A DNA stretch of 57,974 bases, filler included, from Perkinsus olseni (lineage: Eukaryota), in the NCBI GenBank assembly GCA_013115125.1. It is 2 parts of 2 records of this genome, joined end to end, with 100 filler letters (N's around TTAATTAATTAA, not from the genome) between each part and the next. Parts side by side here need not be neighbours in the genome. Positions count along the whole stretch, not along the records: positions 29,074 to 57,974 come from JABANN010000440.1; 1 more part is not named here. One strand, written 5' to 3'. Shown here in pieces: positions 9,501 to 51,179 of the stretch. The first letter of the stretch is position 1. Each line of letters begins with the position of its first letter. Both the position numbers and the translations under genes were made by a program. The notes under the pieces are model-generated. The model ran no database searches. It worked only from the letters and a program-made list of their open reading frames with translations, and was not told the DNA's origin.

Positions 9501-10178
9501 TTAGTGGGGCTCCTGTGGTAGGGGGGCTCCCGAGAGGAACGAACTTGAGAGAGTTGAGTGTGGTCCTTGAAAATGGTCGTAATCCTTCGTGTATTCGAAA
9601 GAGTAGCCGAGAGCATATACTTCGAGCAAGGTGTTAGTGAGCGTGACATTGAGGCCCAGGGGAGCTTTCAGGGCTGTCCACGTCAGCAACATCGGCACAG
9701 TGTGCAGGCCCTCGCTCACGGGTCCCAAAAGTATATCCTCGCTGAGCGTTACTTCCAAGACGTCAAGCTCGAGAGAGTCTGTCTCCATGAACCATAAGAC
9801 CGACTCGTCGTTGCTCAGGATTGCCACCTCTGTCCATAGTCTGTTGCGAGTCTTCAGCACCACTGACCCTTGTGCACAGTACTGCAGCTGAGACGCCAAA
9901 CTAACCATACCACACCAAACGTATCGTTCCAGGGTGAGGTTCTCAACCGATACTTGAAGTACCGAAGGGAGATTATATGAAAGAGTTAAGAGAGTGCCGA
10001 TGTACGAAAGTCCGCTAGCCACTGTTAGCGCGGACAGCAGGGCCCATACGGCCAGACGAAACCGAGACCTCTTCGCGTCGAGTGCCTCTTTGAGAACTCG
10101 CCGCAGGTCCCTCCGAGGCTTGCCTGCCACCGGCTTCGACCATCGGAGGAACCCAGAAGGGGTATCGAGAGGGTCGTG
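9501..10178 (-). CDS. Membrane-anchored family member 2 (no in-frame ATG ahead of the conserved N-terminus)
   Basis: DPLDTPSGFLRWS...ENLTLERYVWCGMV...NRLWTE...LEVYALGY; intronless; in-frame TGA immediately upstream. Confidence 0.6.
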   Translation of the reverse strand, partial: HDPLDTPSGFLRWSKPVAGKPRRDLRRVLKEALDAKRSRFRLAVWALLSALTVASGLSYIGTLLTLSYNLPSVLQVSVENLTLERYVWCGMVSLASQLQYCAQGSVVLKTRNRLWTEVAILSNDESVLWFMETDSLELDVLEVTLSEDILLGPVSEGLHTVPMLLTWTALKAPLGLNVTLTNTLLEVYALGYSFEYTKDYDHFQGPHSTLSSSFLSGAPLPQEPH

Positions 10179-18449: not shown

Positions 18450-19238
18450 CTAAGCTTCTAGCCCGGACACCATGACCTTGTCAGCAGCCGCTGACTGGGG
18501 AGTCAGTGACTTTAGTAGGGTTCCCGAGGTGGGCGACAAGTTCGAGAGAGCGAAGCGTGGTCCTCGAAGATCGGGGAACTCTTCCCGGTACCAGAAATAG
18601 CCACCAAGAGCATGAAGTTCGAGAAGGCCATTCGCAAGCGTCAGGTTGGTACCTTGGGGGCCCATAGGAGCTCCAGCCGCTAGAGTGATCGGTAGAATAT
18701 GTAGGCTCTCGCTCATGGGTGCCACCGCCGTATCCCCGACCATCGTCAAGACGGCGATCGATCCGGTATCTTCGAGAGAGGTTGTCTTGTTGAACCATAA
18801 GAATGATTTACCACTGCGGATTGTCATCTCCGTCCACATTCTGTTGTGAATTTTCAAATCTATCGTCCCTCGTGCACAGTACTCCATTCGAGAATCTAAT
18901 GTTACCATACCACACCAAACGCATCGTTCCAGAGTAAGTTTCTCCACCGATATGTCGAATACCGAGGGGAGATCATATGAAATAGTTAGAAGAGCGCCAA
19001 TGTACCAGAGACCGCAGGCCAATGTTAGTCCAGACAGAAGAGCCCACATTGCCAAGTGATACCACGACTTCTGCTTGACACTCGTCAATATGTCCTGTAA
19101 AGTCCGTGGCGGCTTCTCTGGCGCCGGTCGTGACCACCGGAGAAACCCAGAAGGAGTATCGGGCGTCCATACCCAACGTTCGGCGGCAGATGCTCCGGCA
19201 AAAGAAGGCGAGTCACCCTTAGAGATGCAGACGGGCAC
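18450..19238 (-). CDS. Membrane-anchored family member 3 (no in-frame ATG ahead of the conserved N-terminus)
   Basis: 262-codon open frame with DTPSGFLRWS, a TM helix, EKLTLERCVWCGMV, YCARGTIDLKIHNRMWTE and LELHALG. Confidence 0.65.
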   Translation of the reverse strand: MPVCISKGDSPSFAGASAAERWVWTPDTPSGFLRWSRPAPEKPPRTLQDILTSVKQKSWYHLAMWALLSGLTLACGLWYIGALLTISYDLPSVFDISVEKLTLERCVWCGMVTLDSRMEYCARGTIDLKIHNRMWTEMTIRSGKSFLWFNKTTSLEDTGSIAVLTMVGDTAVAPMSESLHILPITLAAGAPMGPQGTNLTLANGLLELHALGGYFWYREEFPDLRGPRFALSNLSPTSGTLLKSLTPQSAAADKVMVSGLEA

Positions 19239-19270
19239 GGCGTGACAGGGACGGTGACACGGGGCCCCAA

Positions 19271-20521
19271 TTGTCTCTCACCCCACTTGCTCTATCTTCT
19301 CTGGTCGTAGACTTCACAATCCTTCGAGGGCCCTGTATAATAAACAGTGGGTGTACAACCTCGCTCTCTGAGCGCCACAGTGAGCGCTCGACCCTCGGGC
19401 GCCCAGAGAGCGAGGTTGCCTTGAGTCTCGAGGGGATTCAACAACGTACGCTTGCTAGCGACGATAAACTGCCCTTCTGCACTATAACTCAGTACAGTGT
19501 GGCTATTTGAGACGGGGCTCAAAGAAAGGTGAAACCGGACTCGAGAGGAGTTCGGGAAAACTGATCTAGTTGTTGGATTCATGGTGAACGTATGTTCCAT
19601 AGCATGACGAGGAACGCACGGATTCACTGGGACCAACGTTGTTGTGCCATTCGGGTGTATCAGGTGACATAGGACTCAACACACAGGAAGAGACGGTCTA
19701 AATCATCCAAAGTCATCTAAATCCATGGAGGAAGTGTCTCGTCTCGAGCACAGCGGAGCGAAGCGCATCAAACGTAGTACGTTGAACGTACGTACCACGA
19801 GCAAAGGCGCACAAAGAGCAAGGTGGGTACGCAGCAGCAATGAAGGCAGTTGTCACTATAGTGCACTTCACTTGTTGCAACTCGTTGCCGAAACTTGGAA
19901 ACTTGCAAGACTACATTCATTGCTCAACAATCATCCGAGAAAGAACTCCCACACCAGCAGAAGCCTGCAACTTCGAGTTCGGCGACTCCCCCGCCAATTG
20001 TCGAGGTGACACAAGACTCCCCCCTTTGGGGGGGAGTCAAGGCCCCCCAGTGATACAGCAGACGCCTTCCGAGACCACCCCTCCCTCTTGAGACCCAGAG
20101 ACTATGAGGATGCCCGCAAAGATGCAAGGAAGGAGGCTGACCTCATGAGCAAGTTCAAGGGGACTGATGATCCACGAAGTCTGGACGGCTTTCTCTCCCA
20201 CCTCAATGTGAGGTTGAGTTTGAATGGTTGGGTCAGAGGCTCGCCTCAGTCCTATTATCTCCTTGTGAACTCGTTAGATTCTGAGGTAGTCGAAGAGATC
20301 TTTGTCCCCACTGAGTCCCTTCTTCAAGTTCAACGAACCCCCGAATGGTTCGATCACGCCTTCAACGACACCCTGACTGAGCTGTACATTAATTACTATG
20401 ACCCTTCCATGCGAACTCTCCTCCTTGCCAAGTGACAGCAGACTCAGCAAGCCCACAGCCAGTCCTTCGAGGAATACCTCATGGAATTAGAGAGACAGCG
20501 AGTACTGTTGAGGCACAGCAA
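19271..20521 (+). mobile_element. Decayed gag-like retroelement ORF, split by a solo-LTR-like insertion
   Basis: SKFKGTDDPRSLDGFL...LLAK*QQTQQAHSQSFEEYL resembles retrotransposon capsid regions. It has a frameshift near 20088 and an in-frame TGA at 20433. The ORF halves rejoin when 19478-19865 plus one TSD is removed. Confidence 0.55.
19478..19865. mobile_element. Solo-LTR-like element copy 1 (388 bp), TSD CTTC
   Basis: TG...CA termini, 9-bp terminal inverted repeat TGCACTATA/TATAGTGCA, CTTC on both flanks; homologous to 47513-47750. Confidence 0.88.
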
Positions 20522-37484: not shown

Positions 37485-39138
37485 GTCGTCGAGTGGTACT
37501 AACGCTACCCAGATGATAGCCCGTCATTCTCTCTTTACCTGAAGACGTTATGCTGCTCTGAGGGAACAGCTTTTTTTCATTCTCCCTAGCGGGTAGTTGA
37601 AGTCAAACTGATTGAGATCGAAAATTCAGTTTCGTCCTAGACTCCCCACACGACACTTCCATGCACGGAGCATAAGTATCTGAACGCAGCCAAATCGTCG
37701 GGAATCTACTCGGTCCTGGACGCTGCTTCCTCAGGAAATCTGCCCTGGCGAGCGCCCAATTCGCTGTGGCCTTGAGCGGCTTTTTAGTGATACTGGCCTG
37801 TAGTGTGGCTGCTATCCGCCTGCGGCTATCGGAGGACCCGGCCGAGTCGGACGAAGATGATGAGGAGGGGGATGAGGATATTGCTGTTGTTGTTATTGAG
37901 GGACCCAATGAGGAGAATAAGACTGTTGATGGATCGGATGATGTACATCGGGACTATTGCGGCTTCTCCGTTATTGCTCATAGTCAACGCAAGGCGGGAA
38001 GGAGTGTAAAGCCCCTCTACCTAGTTCTACTTTGGAGGTTGGGGTACTAGCTTTGCACGCATGCACAAGGCGATCGACGCATGATAATCGAGTGACACCT
38101 GACGAAAGCGAGATTGTCGAATCGACTTCAAAGGATTGTTCACCGTTCATCCTCTCGAAGCTATAGTGAAGTTCGCCGAACTTCACTATAGCCGAACTTA
38201 GTTCGGTGAGGTCTCCCCGATGGTCGGCCAAGGAGTGGCCTAGGGTGATGTCCCGATACTAGAGAATTATCAATCATTCTGGACTGTACATCCGAGCTTG
38301 CCTTACACTCTCAGAAGGCCGAGGAACTAAATGGTGGTGTGCAGGTCCCAATGATCGTGATACAATCTAGTCCGACTTCGGAGCCCGCCCGGCCACCTCA
38401 GGAGTCGTCCGATGTGAAGCGCTTGGGTGCCGCTGTCCCTTCCGTCTGGGGGGCCTCCAGTCGTGCTTCCTCAGTGTCATCCAAGCTGGGAAGGTGGAGC
38501 AGGAGCAGTATGATCTTCCGGTTCTCGAGGAAGAAAGGAAATCGCCCCGCGCTTCAACTGGATCGGCGGCCCGACGATGACGCCGAACAGTAATTGGCAT
38601 GATGGCGCATGATTGCCAACGGTGTTTCAATACAACTACGTGAGCACTTCCGTTGAAACTCCAATCCAACCGATGAGACGACAGTTTTGATTTGGAACGA
38701 GACTCGTACAACTTGTACCACGTTACAAGCCACTAACGCTACATTACGAGCGTGACGTTAGTGCCAGGATCGATACATCTGCTCATTTTCCCAGCTCCAT
38801 TAACAGGCTGAGTTATAGAGTCCCTACGGTGAGGCTGAGCCAGAGTCCAGAATATGGACCTTCACAGCTGTCTTCTACTGCGATGGCCCGTGTAATATGA
38901 GAACGCGATGTAACGCTCATCGAGCCCTTGGAGTACTTGAGGATCAGTGTTATTGCACCAGCTGCCTTTTGACAGCCCATGACCGTCCATAACCACAGCA
39001 ATGCCGCCAGTGCCAAGGAGTGGGCAGACGCGTTTCGTAGGGAGACCGAGGAGCTGAGGATAGCGCAGCAAAGGATGGTTACAATCGAAGTGAATGTTGC
39101 AGTCAGTTTGGCGTCACTAGACGCTTTTTCAGGCTGAG

Positions 39139-39886
39139 ATGCAGGGGCCTGTGACGAGCGCCAGCCGCCGCTCTCTAGCGCGTGCTCGACTGACGCTAGA
39201 CAAAGCTAGAGAGAAGTTCGAGGATCGGAAATCGGAAGCGAAGGGATTCCGAACCAGAGTGAGAAGGGAGCTCTCATGAGAGTCATCCAGCCAGTGAGTA
39301 TGGTCAGGTTCGCTTGAAGGCACCACTGCCGTTCGAAGCTTCTTCCCCTCAAGTCCGTACCGTGCCGCGCGGTCAGGCCCCTCAGCGCGAAATGGAGGAC
39401 GATCAAAGCGATCATTCGACGATGGATGAGCTTCAAGCTCTGCGCTATGAACTTTTCCGTGAACTTGAACAGTGCGCTATGCGAGATAAAACAAGGCAGT
39501 GCTCGCAGTGCGGTCGTGAAGGTGAATCGAGAATTGGTCGCAGAGAGGAGACACCGGCTTGGAGACGATACCTAGATGAGGACTCGAGCAGCGAGGCTGC
39601 TAGAAGGAGCATCAGAGACGAGGAAGACGCTGAGGTCTCGGGCTGTGAGTCTTTAGAGCAGGACGATGCGAGCAGGACGAGGGACGCTGACGGCGGTGAT
39701 GTCCGTCCAGTGTCAGCGACGAGGCCGGACGAGCATGGCAGATCTCAGAGCGCAGTATTTCCTCAGAGTGTAGGGAGGGTGAGAGGCATACCGAGAGCAT
39801 CATCAGCCGGAGTGCGAATCAGACCCGGTGGAGAAGGTCAAGTCACAGAAAGACAAGAGGCGGTAAGATGGTTGATGCATGACTGA
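39139..39886 (+). CDS. Hypothetical charged/coiled-coil protein, possibly degenerate
   Basis: Glu/Arg-rich ORF 39314-39886 plus an upstream exon-like segment. Confidence 0.35.
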
Positions 39887-41076
39887 TAGCTGCAACAATG
39901 CCATTTCTTCGTGTTGCCTCGCTCAGTTTGCGCGAAGTACTGAGCTTAAGTAGAAATGCGGAACGAGATTAGAGCTATCAGCTAGAAATGATCCCTCAGG
40001 AATCCTAGCTCAAACTCATGTTCATTAGCGAATTCGTTTCAAGTTTTCCGACACAACCGGCACTGCCTTTGTTCATTTGCTTCAAGCAAATTGCTTGTAT
40101 GCTGCAGTCCAATCATCACTTCCGCTGCGTCCTCGCCGGCCGAAGACATGATGCAGATTTGCCGACTACGCCAGCTCGAAGCGAGGAAGAAGATCTCTCG
40201 CCAGTGATGATGGATGATGTCTTGCTTTAGCCACCGGGTCTGAGTTCAAAGTTCATATCCAGACCCAGAAGACTGTAAACTGCATGACAACCAGGAATTT
40301 GCACTCCAGGCTGGTACGCTTCTTATTGGGGCAGTGCTGACTACCCCTTGGGCTGCATTTCGTTGCCATGTGGCAATCACCCATTTCTTTTCAACAGAGA
40401 AGGCGAGGATTGAAATGCGCCATTTATTGCCAACACTTCTCCGAGGTGTCGAAGATTTTCTGGTGTTTTGTGTTCTAGTCGTAGTTTGGCACGCGAAGGC
40501 GATGAGCGGCAGCCTACTTGGATACCCTGAAAACCGAGCAACTGTATGCCCTTGGGGCCAATCCTCTGTGGTATGTGACGCTAGATACAGTTCGTTGCCT
40601 TCGCGTGCCAAACCTCGCCTCGAACACAAGTCACCACAGGATTGGGCTATTATCTGGACTCAGCGGCTCGATGAAGCAGATATACAGCAATATCCATATA
40701 CAACCGCCGACAGGGCACTATGCCGATATACATCAATGAATCGGACGCTGAACCTGCCCCTCAGAGAGAATAAAGAGGGGAAAATCGGTCTGTTAGGGTA
40801 CACTCGGAACAGTTACTGGTCTGAGCAGCACAGGTTGCTTGGAACCAACGATCAAACCGCGCACAAGAGTCCTGTAATAGGCTGACACTTGCGGCCAGCT
40901 GAGACCGACAGGGTTGTGTGCCAATAACGATAGAGGGGACGAGCAACGTGAGGTAACGACTCCGGCTCGAACTGTACCTCCAAGCACACGTGCTTTCCAA
41001 TTCTACATTAATATCGGCTACTTCTGCAAGCAACAACTGAGGCTACACAATTACTAGCATAGCAGGGAACATGCTC

Positions 41077-47998: not shown

Positions 47999-48582
47999 AA
48001 CTCTCGGACAACTTCTGGCGATGTTTTTTTGAGTGGACGAGCGTGCCATTCGTGTTATTTCCCTGTTATTCCTTTCCTGACTCCACCTCCTTGTGTGGGA
48101 TTGGGAGTGCACGGCGTGCACTGCACGCAGGCACAAGAAGCGATCGGCGCACAATGAGCAAATATCTACCTCCGTAGTACGGAGTCCGTACGGTGTTAGT
48201 GGGAGCTAGTCGCCTCAGGTAATCCCTTGTTGAGTCTTCCGTTTCGGATTGCAACACATTGGGTTCATGGCACCGAGTACAGGTTACATTCTATCCTGCC
48301 CATCATAACTCTCTCACCTGGGGACAAACCCTGTCTAACGGGACAAGGTCCCATCGCCCCAGTAGGAACGATGCTCATGCGTGCAAGCACTTAGCTCAAA
48401 CTATTGAGTTTGACCATCTAAAACCGTTCGATGATCATCCTCGTGATAGTGACCACAGCCTCGGTTTTCATAGAATAGGAAACCCTCGGCCTCCTTTGAA
48501 CAATTGGCAATGATATCCTCAGGTCGATCAGTGAGATTCGGGCCTGTATCTCGTTTCAGATCTCCAGTCGGATTTTTTGCTG

Positions 48583-50256
48583 ATGCTCCCTAAACTTTCG
48601 ACTTGCACCGTCATTACTCTGCTGGCTGCCCATGCCGCCCCACCACAAGCGGGCAACGTGCGCATGCGCGTTACCACCAAGGACTACTGCAATCCAGACT
48701 TGAAGGACGGCCACGGCAACCCTGCTCCGTGCGGCGTTTCGAAGTCCATGGAGACCTTCGGCCTGACCCTCCCCGGCATGGATGACGGTGTTCTCACAAC
48801 CAGAGAGGATATCATCATCACTAACGATGGTCAAGTGTCGGTCAAGGCTTTGCCCAATTACCCCTACCAGTTCATCATGACGGTGGAGTCACCCGAGTCG
48901 ACACGTGTCGAGCAACTTTACGACCATCAGTCCTCTGTCCTCGCCGAAGCTCCTCTCCCCAGCTACGTGAGCCGTCTCCACAATGCCGGCATTGACGCAG
49001 CTGATCTTGAGGCTCAGGGGTGGACCCATGAAGGTGTCGAGGAGCTGAATGGTGATGCTGCTATGAGCAGGTGGTCTAAGAAGGGTCCAGAAGGTGTCGA
49101 CCCCAAGGATGGCACCAACTACACGGCCCTCTACCAGACTGGTCTTATGCCTGACACTTGGGTTCTCTTCATCGATGAGGGAACCCACCAGCCTGCTAAG
49201 CTGCTCGCCATGGACACGTATGTTGGGAGTAAGGTCTTCCAAGAATCCACTTTTGAACAGTTCGAGTCCCTTCATGAGGACCTCAGCATCGAGTCGGCTA
49301 CCGAGGCTATGTATCAGACTTACCGGATCGATTCTCACCGCGGCCTCGACGAAGCTCCTGGAAGAGGGGCCCCGTTGGTCATGGCAGATTATATGGCCGG
49401 TGACTTCCTTCCCGAGAGGTCTCGTGCTTTCTTTGAGGAGCACGAGGCAGTGGACTGGATGAGCGAACACCGATCTCTCCGTCAGGCCTCTGTCGCTCGA
49501 GGAATCGAGTACTTCACCATCGAGAAGGATTCCGCGGCCGACATCTACTTCCACGCTTCGAGTCATCGTCAACTCGTCGAGGTTTTCAGTTTCGATTTCC
49601 CCAAGGGATGCAGTGACGGGAAGTCCGCCGACAGTTCCAAAAAGTACTGCTTGTTCGCTTCCGTCGATGTATCTGTAGGCGAGTCCATCGCCGTGAAGGG
49701 TGGTATGACGTACAAGGATATCAAAAACCCTGCCTTCAGCGCCCACTTGAGTCTGTCAGCGACTCTCCAGAAGGACGGCGATGAACTCGTACTCGATCTC
49801 GAGTTCGAGGCCGGTGGATGTGCTTTAGTTCTCCAATACGGAGAAGGAGCAAGCCTTACGATAACCGTCTGCATCTACGGTAAGGCCGGTGGCGAATCCC
49901 TCCTTCAACCGGATAAGCGAACCTTCTACGGCGAGGCAGGTATCGATGTGAAGTTCTACGTCCACCTACCCGTGGCCGGCAGCATCATTAACTGGACTAT
50001 CAGCGCCAAGGTCGGGTGTACGGCGAAACCCAAAAATGTTATTTCGGCTTACGGCAACATCGGCACTCAGGCTTCCGTTAAGCTTGCCAAGGCTAGTGTA
50101 TCTATTGATCTCAAGGGAAACACTGTTGACCACATCGCCAACAAGTGGGAGTTTAACTCCAACTCCTACTTCCATGCTTCAGTCGGAGCTTGGAAACTAA
50201 AGAAGTCTTGGGACAAGCAATGGCAGTTGTGGCATGCAGGCCCTATCAAGTTCTGA
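48583..50256 (+). CDS. Single-exon secreted hypothetical protein (557 aa)
   Basis: Long ORF with strong codon bias, an N-terminal signal peptide, upstream CAG acceptors, a beta-rich C-terminal domain and three HRxLx[E/Q] motifs. Confidence 0.9.
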   Translation: MLPKLSTCTVITLLAAHAAPPQAGNVRMRVTTKDYCNPDLKDGHGNPAPCGVSKSMETFGLTLPGMDDGVLTTREDIIITNDGQVSVKALPNYPYQFIMTVESPESTRVEQLYDHQSSVLAEAPLPSYVSRLHNAGIDAADLEAQGWTHEGVEELNGDAAMSRWSKKGPEGVDPKDGTNYTALYQTGLMPDTWVLFIDEGTHQPAKLLAMDTYVGSKVFQESTFEQFESLHEDLSIESATEAMYQTYRIDSHRGLDEAPGRGAPLVMADYMAGDFLPERSRAFFEEHEAVDWMSEHRSLRQASVARGIEYFTIEKDSAADIYFHASSHRQLVEVFSFDFPKGCSDGKSADSSKKYCLFASVDVSVGESIAVKGGMTYKDIKNPAFSAHLSLSATLQKDGDELVLDLEFEAGGCALVLQYGEGASLTITVCIYGKAGGESLLQPDKRTFYGEAGIDVKFYVHLPVAGSIINWTISAKVGCTAKPKNVISAYGNIGTQASVKLAKASVSIDLKGNTVDHIANKWEFNSNSYFHASVGAWKLKKSWDKQWQLWHAGPIKF

Positions 50257-51179
50257 AGAGTCTACTCGTCAACCAGCCTTTTGAGAGACTGAAGTTGTAA
50301 AAAACTTCAGTTTTGGAGTTCCACCACTTATTCACTTTTTCCGCGAGGGACTCTCGCTTTTAGAGTCAAAAATATCGGAAGCGTCACTGCGTAGTCGACG
50401 CGAATCGTTTGAGGCCCCCGATCGTTTGAGACATCGGGAGCCTCATGTCTTGACCCTTGTCCTATGTAAATAGTTTTCACCTAAGGAGACTGCAAATGAG
50501 CTCGGGGCGTCGGCGGAGCCGATTGCGTCGTACCCTTGTCAACCGTCGATGGGAGGAGAAGTCTCCAACAAGTTCTGATCATGTTGTGTTTCGAACCAGG
50601 GCACGGTCTTGGGGACAGACTTTCCGTCTGAGTGCGAGCGTCCATGAGTACTGTATAATGTATCAGCAGTATCTCCCAGAGAGCTGCACAAGCGGAATCC
50701 TGCGCTATGAATCATATGTAAGGTCACCTGACTCAGGTGGACTATGGATGAAAATAAAGGAACAGCATCTGACCGGGTCGTCAGTAATCCTCAGTAGCCC
50801 ACCTTTAGGTCCCCGGTCAGAATNNNNNNNNNNNNNNNNNNNNNNNNNNNNNNNNNNNNNNNNNNNNNNNNNNNNNNNNNNNNNNNNNNNNNNNNNNNNN
50901 NNNNNNNNNNNNNNNNNNGCATTCTATTAACTACTCAGCAAGCAAGTCGGTCAAATGTCTAACAGTTACACGGTAGCGATAGTATTTCATTAACACTATG
51001 AGGAGTACCAATTACACAGACAGCTGAATGATTGAAGTTGGGGTAAAATTAATAGCGCCTTCTCGCTGGGCGTCGCGAGAATGTCTCTGTGATTTCGCTA
51101 ATCCTCAAAATTACTACAGAAAAATGCAAGCACGAACAATTTCGTGGCGCGCGAAAAACGAGCGAAGCATACATACCGT

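Follow-up and report, generated by a model that had tools for sequence, protein, structure and literature searches.

Proteolysis at R-x-L motifs in secreted proteins has been described in several lineages. In Plasmodium, the export element (PEXEL) lies about 15–30 residues after the signal peptide (PMC4764566), and the proteins matured by plasmepsin V (PMV) include non-exported ones, Asp at P1′ being tolerated (PMC10900883). In Toxoplasma, ASP5 cuts internal RRL sites, the Toxoplasma export element (TEXEL) (PMC4764566); its substrates are often non-exported, and one of them, GRA44, is probably cut twice (PMC6212819). Oomycete RXLR proteins are cut after Leu by an enzyme that is still unsettled (PMC11754927), and the precursors of diatom wall proteins (silaffins, silacidins, frustulins and cingulins) carry several RXL sites (PMC4557024, PMC9650480). 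Here we analyse an intronless gene (48583..50256, plus strand, stop codon included) of the perkinsid Perkinsus olseni that encodes a secreted DUF6740 (PF20525) protein of 557 residues with three internal RxL words. The gene lies in a window of 57,974 nucleotides, by which we mean the whole stretch of DNA that was analysed (assembly GCA_013115125.1); coordinates are positions along this window, and residues are counted in the 557-residue open reading frame (ORF). We favour, with moderate confidence, a model in which the proprotein would be cut after each Leu by a PMV/ASP5-like enzyme encoded in the same genome, and an RxL protein-maturation system thus probably also works outside apicomplexans.

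Assignment to DUF6740 is secure, as the Pfam score exceeds the gathering cut-off across the model (E 6.8e-209; 694.9 bits against a cut-off of 27; residues 24–557, profile positions 1–532 of 532). HRGLDE, HRSLRQ and HRQLVE, the words picked out in an earlier, sequence-only reading of the window, are all present and in frame in the ORF at 48583–50256. Site 1 (H-RGL-DE, residue 252; 49336..49353, plus strand) has its predicted cut after Leu255 (base 49347), site 2 (H-RSL-RQ, an RxLR word, residue 296; 49468..49485, plus strand) after Leu299 (base 49479), and site 3 (H-RQL-VE, residue 328; 49564..49581, plus strand), the best conserved, after Leu331 (base 49575). The protein has no RxL words besides these, whose Arg residues are 253, 297 and 329, and all three fit the RxLxE/Q/D consensus. 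On shuffling of the protein, three HRxLx[EQD] words arose in 0 of 100,000 trials and three RxLx[EQD] words in 79 of 100,000, figures that are overstated because the pattern was picked after being seen; the real test of the motif is therefore its conservation. Origin of the three words from a DNA-level repeat was rejected, given that the codons differ and the 78-base neighbourhoods are alike at 22–27 of 78 positions.

The words are kept as R-x-L in paralogues and orthologues. Among 27 family members, RxL/M is found at site 1 in 16, at site 2 in 20 (with Arg as the next residue in 19 of these) and at site 3 in 26. Their linkers hold 64 RxL words against 14.2 in shuffles, compared with 17 against 14.9 in the N-terminal domain and 3 against 8.1 in the C-terminal domain. 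From an alignment of 52 sequences, 20 representatives below 50% identity were retained to lower relatedness; these contain 35 linker RxL words where 9.3 were expected, a count reached in 0 of 2,000 permutations, and 15 RxLx[EQD] words where 1.4 were expected. At least one linker motif is present in 17 of the 20 representatives and at least two in 13. By contrast, counts of eight x-x-L controls (first residue K, H, Q, E, D, A, G or S) stood at expectation (KxL 5 against 5.1, QxL 7 against 4.9). P2′ is Glu, Gln or Asp in 15 of the 35 linker words (background 0.17), and P2 is Arg in 11. Around sites 1 and 2 the flanking sequence is variable and rich in indels, with conservation in the columns beside RxL dropping to 0.15–0.35 in the representatives. 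The His residues had been read as part of the motif, and this did not hold: His precedes 2 of 16, 3 of 20 and 7 of 26 copies at sites 1–3 and, with the query set aside, 3 of 32 copies in the representative set (p 0.07). The conserved motif, judged from these alignments, is R-x-L, and the His is largely incidental. A further candidate close to residue 131 ('SRL', in a loop modelled with low confidence) was discarded, as it is not RxL in the query and lacks conservation among distant members.

A full-length AlphaFold2 (AF2) model, built on 17 sequences, comprises two domains joined by a low-confidence segment (residues 256–334), and the three words cluster at the start of and within this segment, in keeping with the linker position first proposed for them. 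The N-terminal domain (residues 20–255; 48640..49347, plus strand; about 26 kDa including the N-terminal residue) is predicted, with moderate model confidence, to have the LolA-type open β-sheet fold of LolA and ependymin (EPDR) proteins. Foldseek ranks ependymin-related proteins and LolA highest among its matches (E 6e-5 to 1e-3), and the alignment of model residues 20–255 to human EPDR1 (6e7o; Z 10.7, root-mean-square deviation (rmsd) 3.5, 149 residues aligned) stops at residue 255, the site-1 Leu. In the Atlas, the domain falls near the ependymin and LolA clusters (0.86–0.87), which we treat as leads only, and a Pfam search returned no ependymin match for it. EPDR1 itself interacts with lipids and has hydrophobic grooves (PMC6363788). 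The likeness to this superfamily is one of predicted fold; unlike EPDR1, with which identity is about 10%, the Perkinsus domain is fused to a second domain via a motif-bearing linker.

That second, C-terminal domain (residues 332–557, about 24 kDa; 49576..50253, plus strand) had been described as β-rich. Modelled alone on 47 sequences, it is indeed predicted to form a 12-stranded antiparallel β-meander, with an AF2 predicted local distance difference test (pLDDT) score of 92.7 and a predicted template modelling score of 0.80. Hydropathy alternates along the strands, and most of them present a hydrophobic face and a polar one. Foldseek found no match for this domain in PDB or BFVD at E ≤ 0.001, which is not proof of a new fold; there is also no sequence match in PDB, and the Atlas matches all fall under 0.9. 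A homodimer prediction scored 0.01 with the alignment left unused and counts neither for nor against an assembly.

Profile searches also found stand-alone secreted proteins in which the C-terminal domain follows only a signal peptide and a short pro-piece. This genome has at least 14 such genes, often in tandem (L110–L119, L126, L127, L131, L135 and L139). Among the 14 with a visible N terminus, three have RRL exactly 10 residues before the Pro of the domain's P-x-x-C, and one has RGL 15 residues before it; in the DUF6740 proteins, the site-3 Arg lies 10–11 residues upstream of this Pro in 23 of 27 members. Because the domain exists in genes of its own, some of which start it after RRL, it appears to be a unit whose natural start matches site 3. 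The motifs are therefore placed, on the predicted folds, at domain boundaries, with site 1 ending the N-terminal domain and site 3 opening the β domain.

Between these boundaries lie spacer 1 (residues 256–299, 44 residues, acidic, pLDDT <50; 49348..49479, plus strand), with conserved E278, R281, D291 and W292, and spacer 2 (residues 300–331, 32 residues; 49480..49575, plus strand), with conserved I308, Y310, F311, G at 316, A318 and F323. Five of these positions, W292, I308, Y310, A318 and F323, are conserved in 85–95% of the representatives (W292 0.90, I308 0.90, F323 0.95). The sequence-only reading had the linker releasing two small peptides; being conserved sequence, these two pieces look more like working pro-segments than throw-away parts.

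The same reading had supposed a related aspartyl protease, and one PMV/ASP5-like gene is encoded in the genome (G000). Among 105 aspartyl-protease matches, the weakest Pfam exon match led to this intron-rich gene (L107, G000:C3266:36000-42000; matched exons at about 38,700–40,500, minus strand), hereafter the C3266 protease. Plasmepsin V was the first PDB match for two of its exons (E 1e-12 and 4e-7) and for its database alleles (E 2e-43 and 3e-49), followed for the latter by BACE2 (2e-11 and 2e-15), whereas a control membrane-anchored protease (L037) matched proteinase A and cathepsin D instead. The C3266 locus was the only one matched in the genome. According to the ASP5 model, residues E506 and Q549 form the clamp on the P3 Arg, and I429, Y503, F546 and I554 do so for the P1 Leu (PMC4764566). 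The C3266 protease reads IVDTG, SYTEG and FYTQKANGI; in the last of these, F, Q and I are spaced as in ASP5. It keeps SY-x-E and F-x-x-Q-x4-I, the S3 Glu/Gln plus the S1 hydrophobic residues. Its nepenthesin insert contains four Cys (C-x2-C-x7-C-x4-C), for which the Plasmodium Cys spacing served as reference (PMC9478907). The protein further has a hydrophobic N terminus, a C-terminal transmembrane helix (residues 478–496 of P0113) and an acidic cytosolic tail. This tail bears Tyr motifs, which we take to be suggestive of Golgi sorting. Unlike plasmepsin V, the C3266 protease has no Cys pair (C-x-x-C) after the first catalytic Asp. A DNA pattern for the plasmepsin V Cys motif gave 11 matches against 11 for the control, with no protease in the six loci read. 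We class the enzyme as resembling plasmepsin V/ASP5, the clade D aspartyl proteases, its putative orthology being drawn from best hit and residues.

Set against the known systems, the Perkinsus sites resemble those of TEXEL/ASP5 in being internal, far from the signal peptide and more than one per protein, with a predicted cut after Leu; the protein counts as secretory on a signal peptide called by a crude hydropathy screen only. The enzyme likewise resembles ASP5 in keeping the S3 Glu/Gln and in having Ile at the I554 position. Unlike TEXEL, for which ASP5 is strict for Arg at P2, the three sites have Gly, Ser and Gln there, and a strict RRL rule failed: among family copies, M variants included, RRL accounts for 9 of 16 at site 1, 9 of 20 at site 2 and 8 of 26 at site 3. 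In their fit to RxLx[EQD] with a free P2, the three words are instead like Plasmodium PEXEL, site 1 having Asp at P1′ as in UIS2, and the enzyme is like plasmepsin V in its best PDB match and its four-Cys nepenthesin insert. However, the sites lie more than 230 residues into the protein and number three, so the PEXEL position rule failed as well. The sequence-only reading had taken the motif to be normally single and often near the signal peptide, which is true of Plasmodium but neither of Toxoplasma, with its internal sites and the probable double cut of GRA44, nor of the diatom precursors with their several RXL sites. As both the PEXEL position rule and the TEXEL RRL rule failed, the sites are neither PEXEL nor TEXEL; they may work like both, combining ASP5-like placement with PMV-like freedom at P2. 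Site 2, as an RxLR word in 19 of 20 copies, also recalls oomycete RXLR, but RSLR stands at 297–300 only, distant from the signal peptide and with no EER after it, unlike oomycete RXLR-EER, in which the word comes soon after the signal peptide and EER usually follows. Diatom RXL precursors are similar in having several internal RXL sites in a secreted precursor, release being predicted here; in diatoms, however, RXL ends repeated units of short peptides, whereas the Perkinsus parts are not repeats but a pair of unlike folded domains with two unique spacers, and here a candidate protease has been identified.

RxL words recur in the pro-regions of other secreted families. One is a double saposin-like family without a Pfam match (L166:1033-1824, L166:3982-4767 and L189:8455-9300, all plus strand), met by chance in the genome sample and represented mostly by close relatives. 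Of its 17 sequences, 15 have RxL, of RELxE type, in a variable stretch that separates the pro-piece from the first Cys, and 14 have RxLx[ED] there. The pro-regions of 17 subtilisin ORFs contain RRL six times against 0.6 expected, and counting downstream of a prodomain anchor gave RxL in 9 of 16 subtilisins (18 minus one duplicate and one false anchor). RxL-bearing subtilisins mostly carry a prodomain insert that is missing from the others; one subfamily (L072–L077, L082, L083 and L099) has this insert with RRL/RxL, and a short-prodomain subfamily lacks both. As far as shown by these counts, the RxL motif appears family-specific. More generally, secreted aspartyl proteases (105 matches) and subtilisins (74 matches) form large families in this genome that mostly lack introns, and its conserved protease genes are intron-rich.

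For the scheme that follows, motif conservation, border position, recurrence in pro-regions and the protease with its active-site residues were computed and the two folds predicted; from these we infer cleavage, the pairing of enzyme with substrate, the compartment and what the spacers do. The precursor would run from signal peptide and LolA/ependymin-fold domain through RxL, spacer, RxL, spacer and RxL to an amphipathic 12-stranded β domain. It would enter the endoplasmic reticulum and be cut in the secretory pathway, probably in the Golgi by analogy with ASP5. There, the membrane-anchored C3266 protease would cut after Leu255, Leu299 and Leu331 to give fragments of 26.1, 5.0, 3.7 and 24.3 kDa. 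The products would be a probable lipid-binding domain of about 26 kDa and a β domain of about 24 kDa, and the conserved spacers would serve as pro-segments, probably covering the hydrophobic face of the β domain until its release. The same enzyme may mature other secreted families, namely the saposin-like proteins and one subtilisin subfamily. RxL would act here as a maturation site; a role as a host-export signal is unsupported. A triple site would provide redundancy, consistent with paralogues that have lost single sites.

Several observations weigh against this model. The closest homologue, a P. olseni protein with 92% identity (P0002), has RQH at site 3; 3 of the 20 representatives have no linker RxL/M and just 7 have at least three; and the motif counts within the family are phylogenetically non-independent. 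RxL is absent from the pro-region of 10 of the 14 stand-alone C-domain genes and from 7 of the 16 anchored subtilisins, and the pro-regions of 19 secreted aspartyl proteases showed no excess of RxL (5 against 7.8). A check for enrichment across the secretome, as proposed in the sequence-only reading, did not tell signal-like ORFs from the rest: a small sample, 400 kb plus the window, yielded just 18 signal-like ORFs, among them several transporters or wrong frames. These had 4 RxLx[EQD] words at residues 15–80 against 0.7, and 42 other ORFs had 11 against 2.6. RSLGM and RELLD peptides are left uncut by ASP5 (PMC4764566); since ASP5 needs RRL, the sites here would need a laxer P2. Finally, any of the enzymes behind the 105 aspartyl-protease and 74 subtilisin matches might be able to cut an exposed Arg-containing linker.

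This last point leads to an alternative that we consider unlikely, in which the RxL words are cleavage sites of another enzyme (a subtilase, either site-1-protease-like or one of the many secreted subtilisins, or a cathepsin), possibly one cutting after a basic residue. Site-1 protease recognizes R-x-L/hydrophobic motifs. The conserved basic residue at P4, which is Arg, Lys or His in 13 of the 35 linker words (background 0.14), and the P1′ Arg of site 2, which makes it RxLR in 19 of 20 copies, would then belong to the recognition sequence; subtilisins abound in the genome with their 74 matches, and the oomycete RXLR protease is itself still unsettled (PMC11754927). The P2′ preference for Glu, Gln or Asp, however, suits the PEXEL type, and the genome does encode a PMV/ASP5-like enzyme whose S3 pocket is intact. 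Domains of site-1 protease and kexin (PF23090, PF23094 and PF01483) gave no match in an exon-by-exon search of this intron-rich genome, a result that is uninformative given that it had no eukaryotic positive control.

Rather unlikely, in our estimate, is that the chain stays whole and the RxL words are structural docking elements, with the linker a conserved sub-domain folded onto one of the domains. Spacer columns such as W292, I308 and F323 are as conserved as the motifs, the low pLDDT of the linker derives from a 17-sequence alignment, and RxLxE is frequent in helices and enriched in the non-secreted sample too. Yet pro-regions attached to unrelated folds contain this very word, and it precedes the first strand in stand-alone β domains that have neither N-terminal domain nor spacers. 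It also survives in P0078 (622 residues, 24% identity, HH probability 97.7%), which lost most of the spacer sequence and retains RRRL and RDL in a linker of 30 residues. P0078 has both DUF6740-like domains plus two Cys-rich C-terminal repeats and is possibly from outside Perkinsus.

Quite improbable, in turn, is a wider reading in which a pathway of the PEXEL/TEXEL type operates at the host interface in Perkinsozoa, its ASP5-like enzyme maturing many secreted families at RxL, and the amphipathic DUF6740 sheet, freed from its LolA-like chaperone domain, assembles as a membrane β-barrel. The C-terminal model resembles bacterial barrels loosely (Z up to 11.8, rmsd mostly 9–13), and the full-length model superposes on TonB-type barrels with an rmsd of about 3 over some 190 residues. 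Were it true, the RxL signal and a eukaryotic secreted barrel-plus-LolA module would be placed outside the apicomplexans, and RxL maturation would date to the common ancestor of the apicomplexan and dinoflagellate lineages or earlier. Functionless inheritance, with an ancestral RxL copied along with the genes and the His triplet arising by chance, would suit the poor conservation of His and the fact that all named members are from Perkinsus, but we regard it as very improbable because RxL persists below 50% identity while its neighbouring columns decay and control x-x-L words are not enriched.

As for the gene itself, a probable signal peptide (residues 1–18; 48583..48636, plus strand) is indicated by a hydrophobic N terminus that reaches the threshold of the hydropathy screen, and the N termini of relatives are hydrophobic too. 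The probable transcript spans 48558..50566 (plus strand), the extent covered, with flanks uncovered, by contigs without joints from four runs in four studies. These four runs are guessed to be RNA, and their coverage hints, weakly, at unspliced transcription of the gene; of the 24 listed runs containing the gene, 14 are guessed to be RNA. Named DUF6740 relatives are all hypothetical proteins from P. olseni, P. chesapeaki and P. marinus, and the genome has 27 matches in about 20 genes. Copies with an in-frame stop or in pieces (L009 at G000:C1048, L024–L026 at G000:C2036 and L016/L020 at G000:C3313) are probable pseudogenes or assembly breaks. One paralogue (L021:1486-3198, minus strand) has a Thr/Pro mucin-like stretch after the signal peptide and keeps site 3 alone. 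An antisense open frame of 288 codons overlies the gene (48892–49755, minus strand) and is probably a codon-usage shadow; long antisense frames occur in several paralogues. Elsewhere in the window, two related open frames (9504–10178 and 18453–19277, minus strand) have a common 'DTPSGFLRWS' segment followed by hydrophobic helices and are likely to encode paralogous membrane proteins.

Among the open-access matches listed in our literature search, nothing dealt with RxL processing, an ASP5 homologue or DUF6740 in Perkinsus, and no paper named DUF6740 or five of its P. marinus members; this covers open-access text, and subscription phylogenies of ASP5 and PMV or the alignment in PMC8540915 could already include the Perkinsus enzyme. 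The maturation of DUF6740 by an ASP5-like protease would be a mechanism of a known kind, and its lineage, its substrates and its mixed specificity appear new. For the family, of which there are about 20 genes per genome, the analysis provides the first structural reading that we found. The inferred specificity would lie between that of PMV, with its free P2, and that of ASP5, with its internal sites. It is an open question whether PEXEL first signalled export or first served general maturation in the secretory pathway, and oomycetes and diatoms also use RxL words, with proteases that are still unsettled. Having internal RxL conserved across three unrelated secreted families together with just one PMV/ASP5-like enzyme, a perkinsid offers a testable case outside apicomplexans. 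In this parasite of shellfish (clams), the enzyme may also be a possible drug target.

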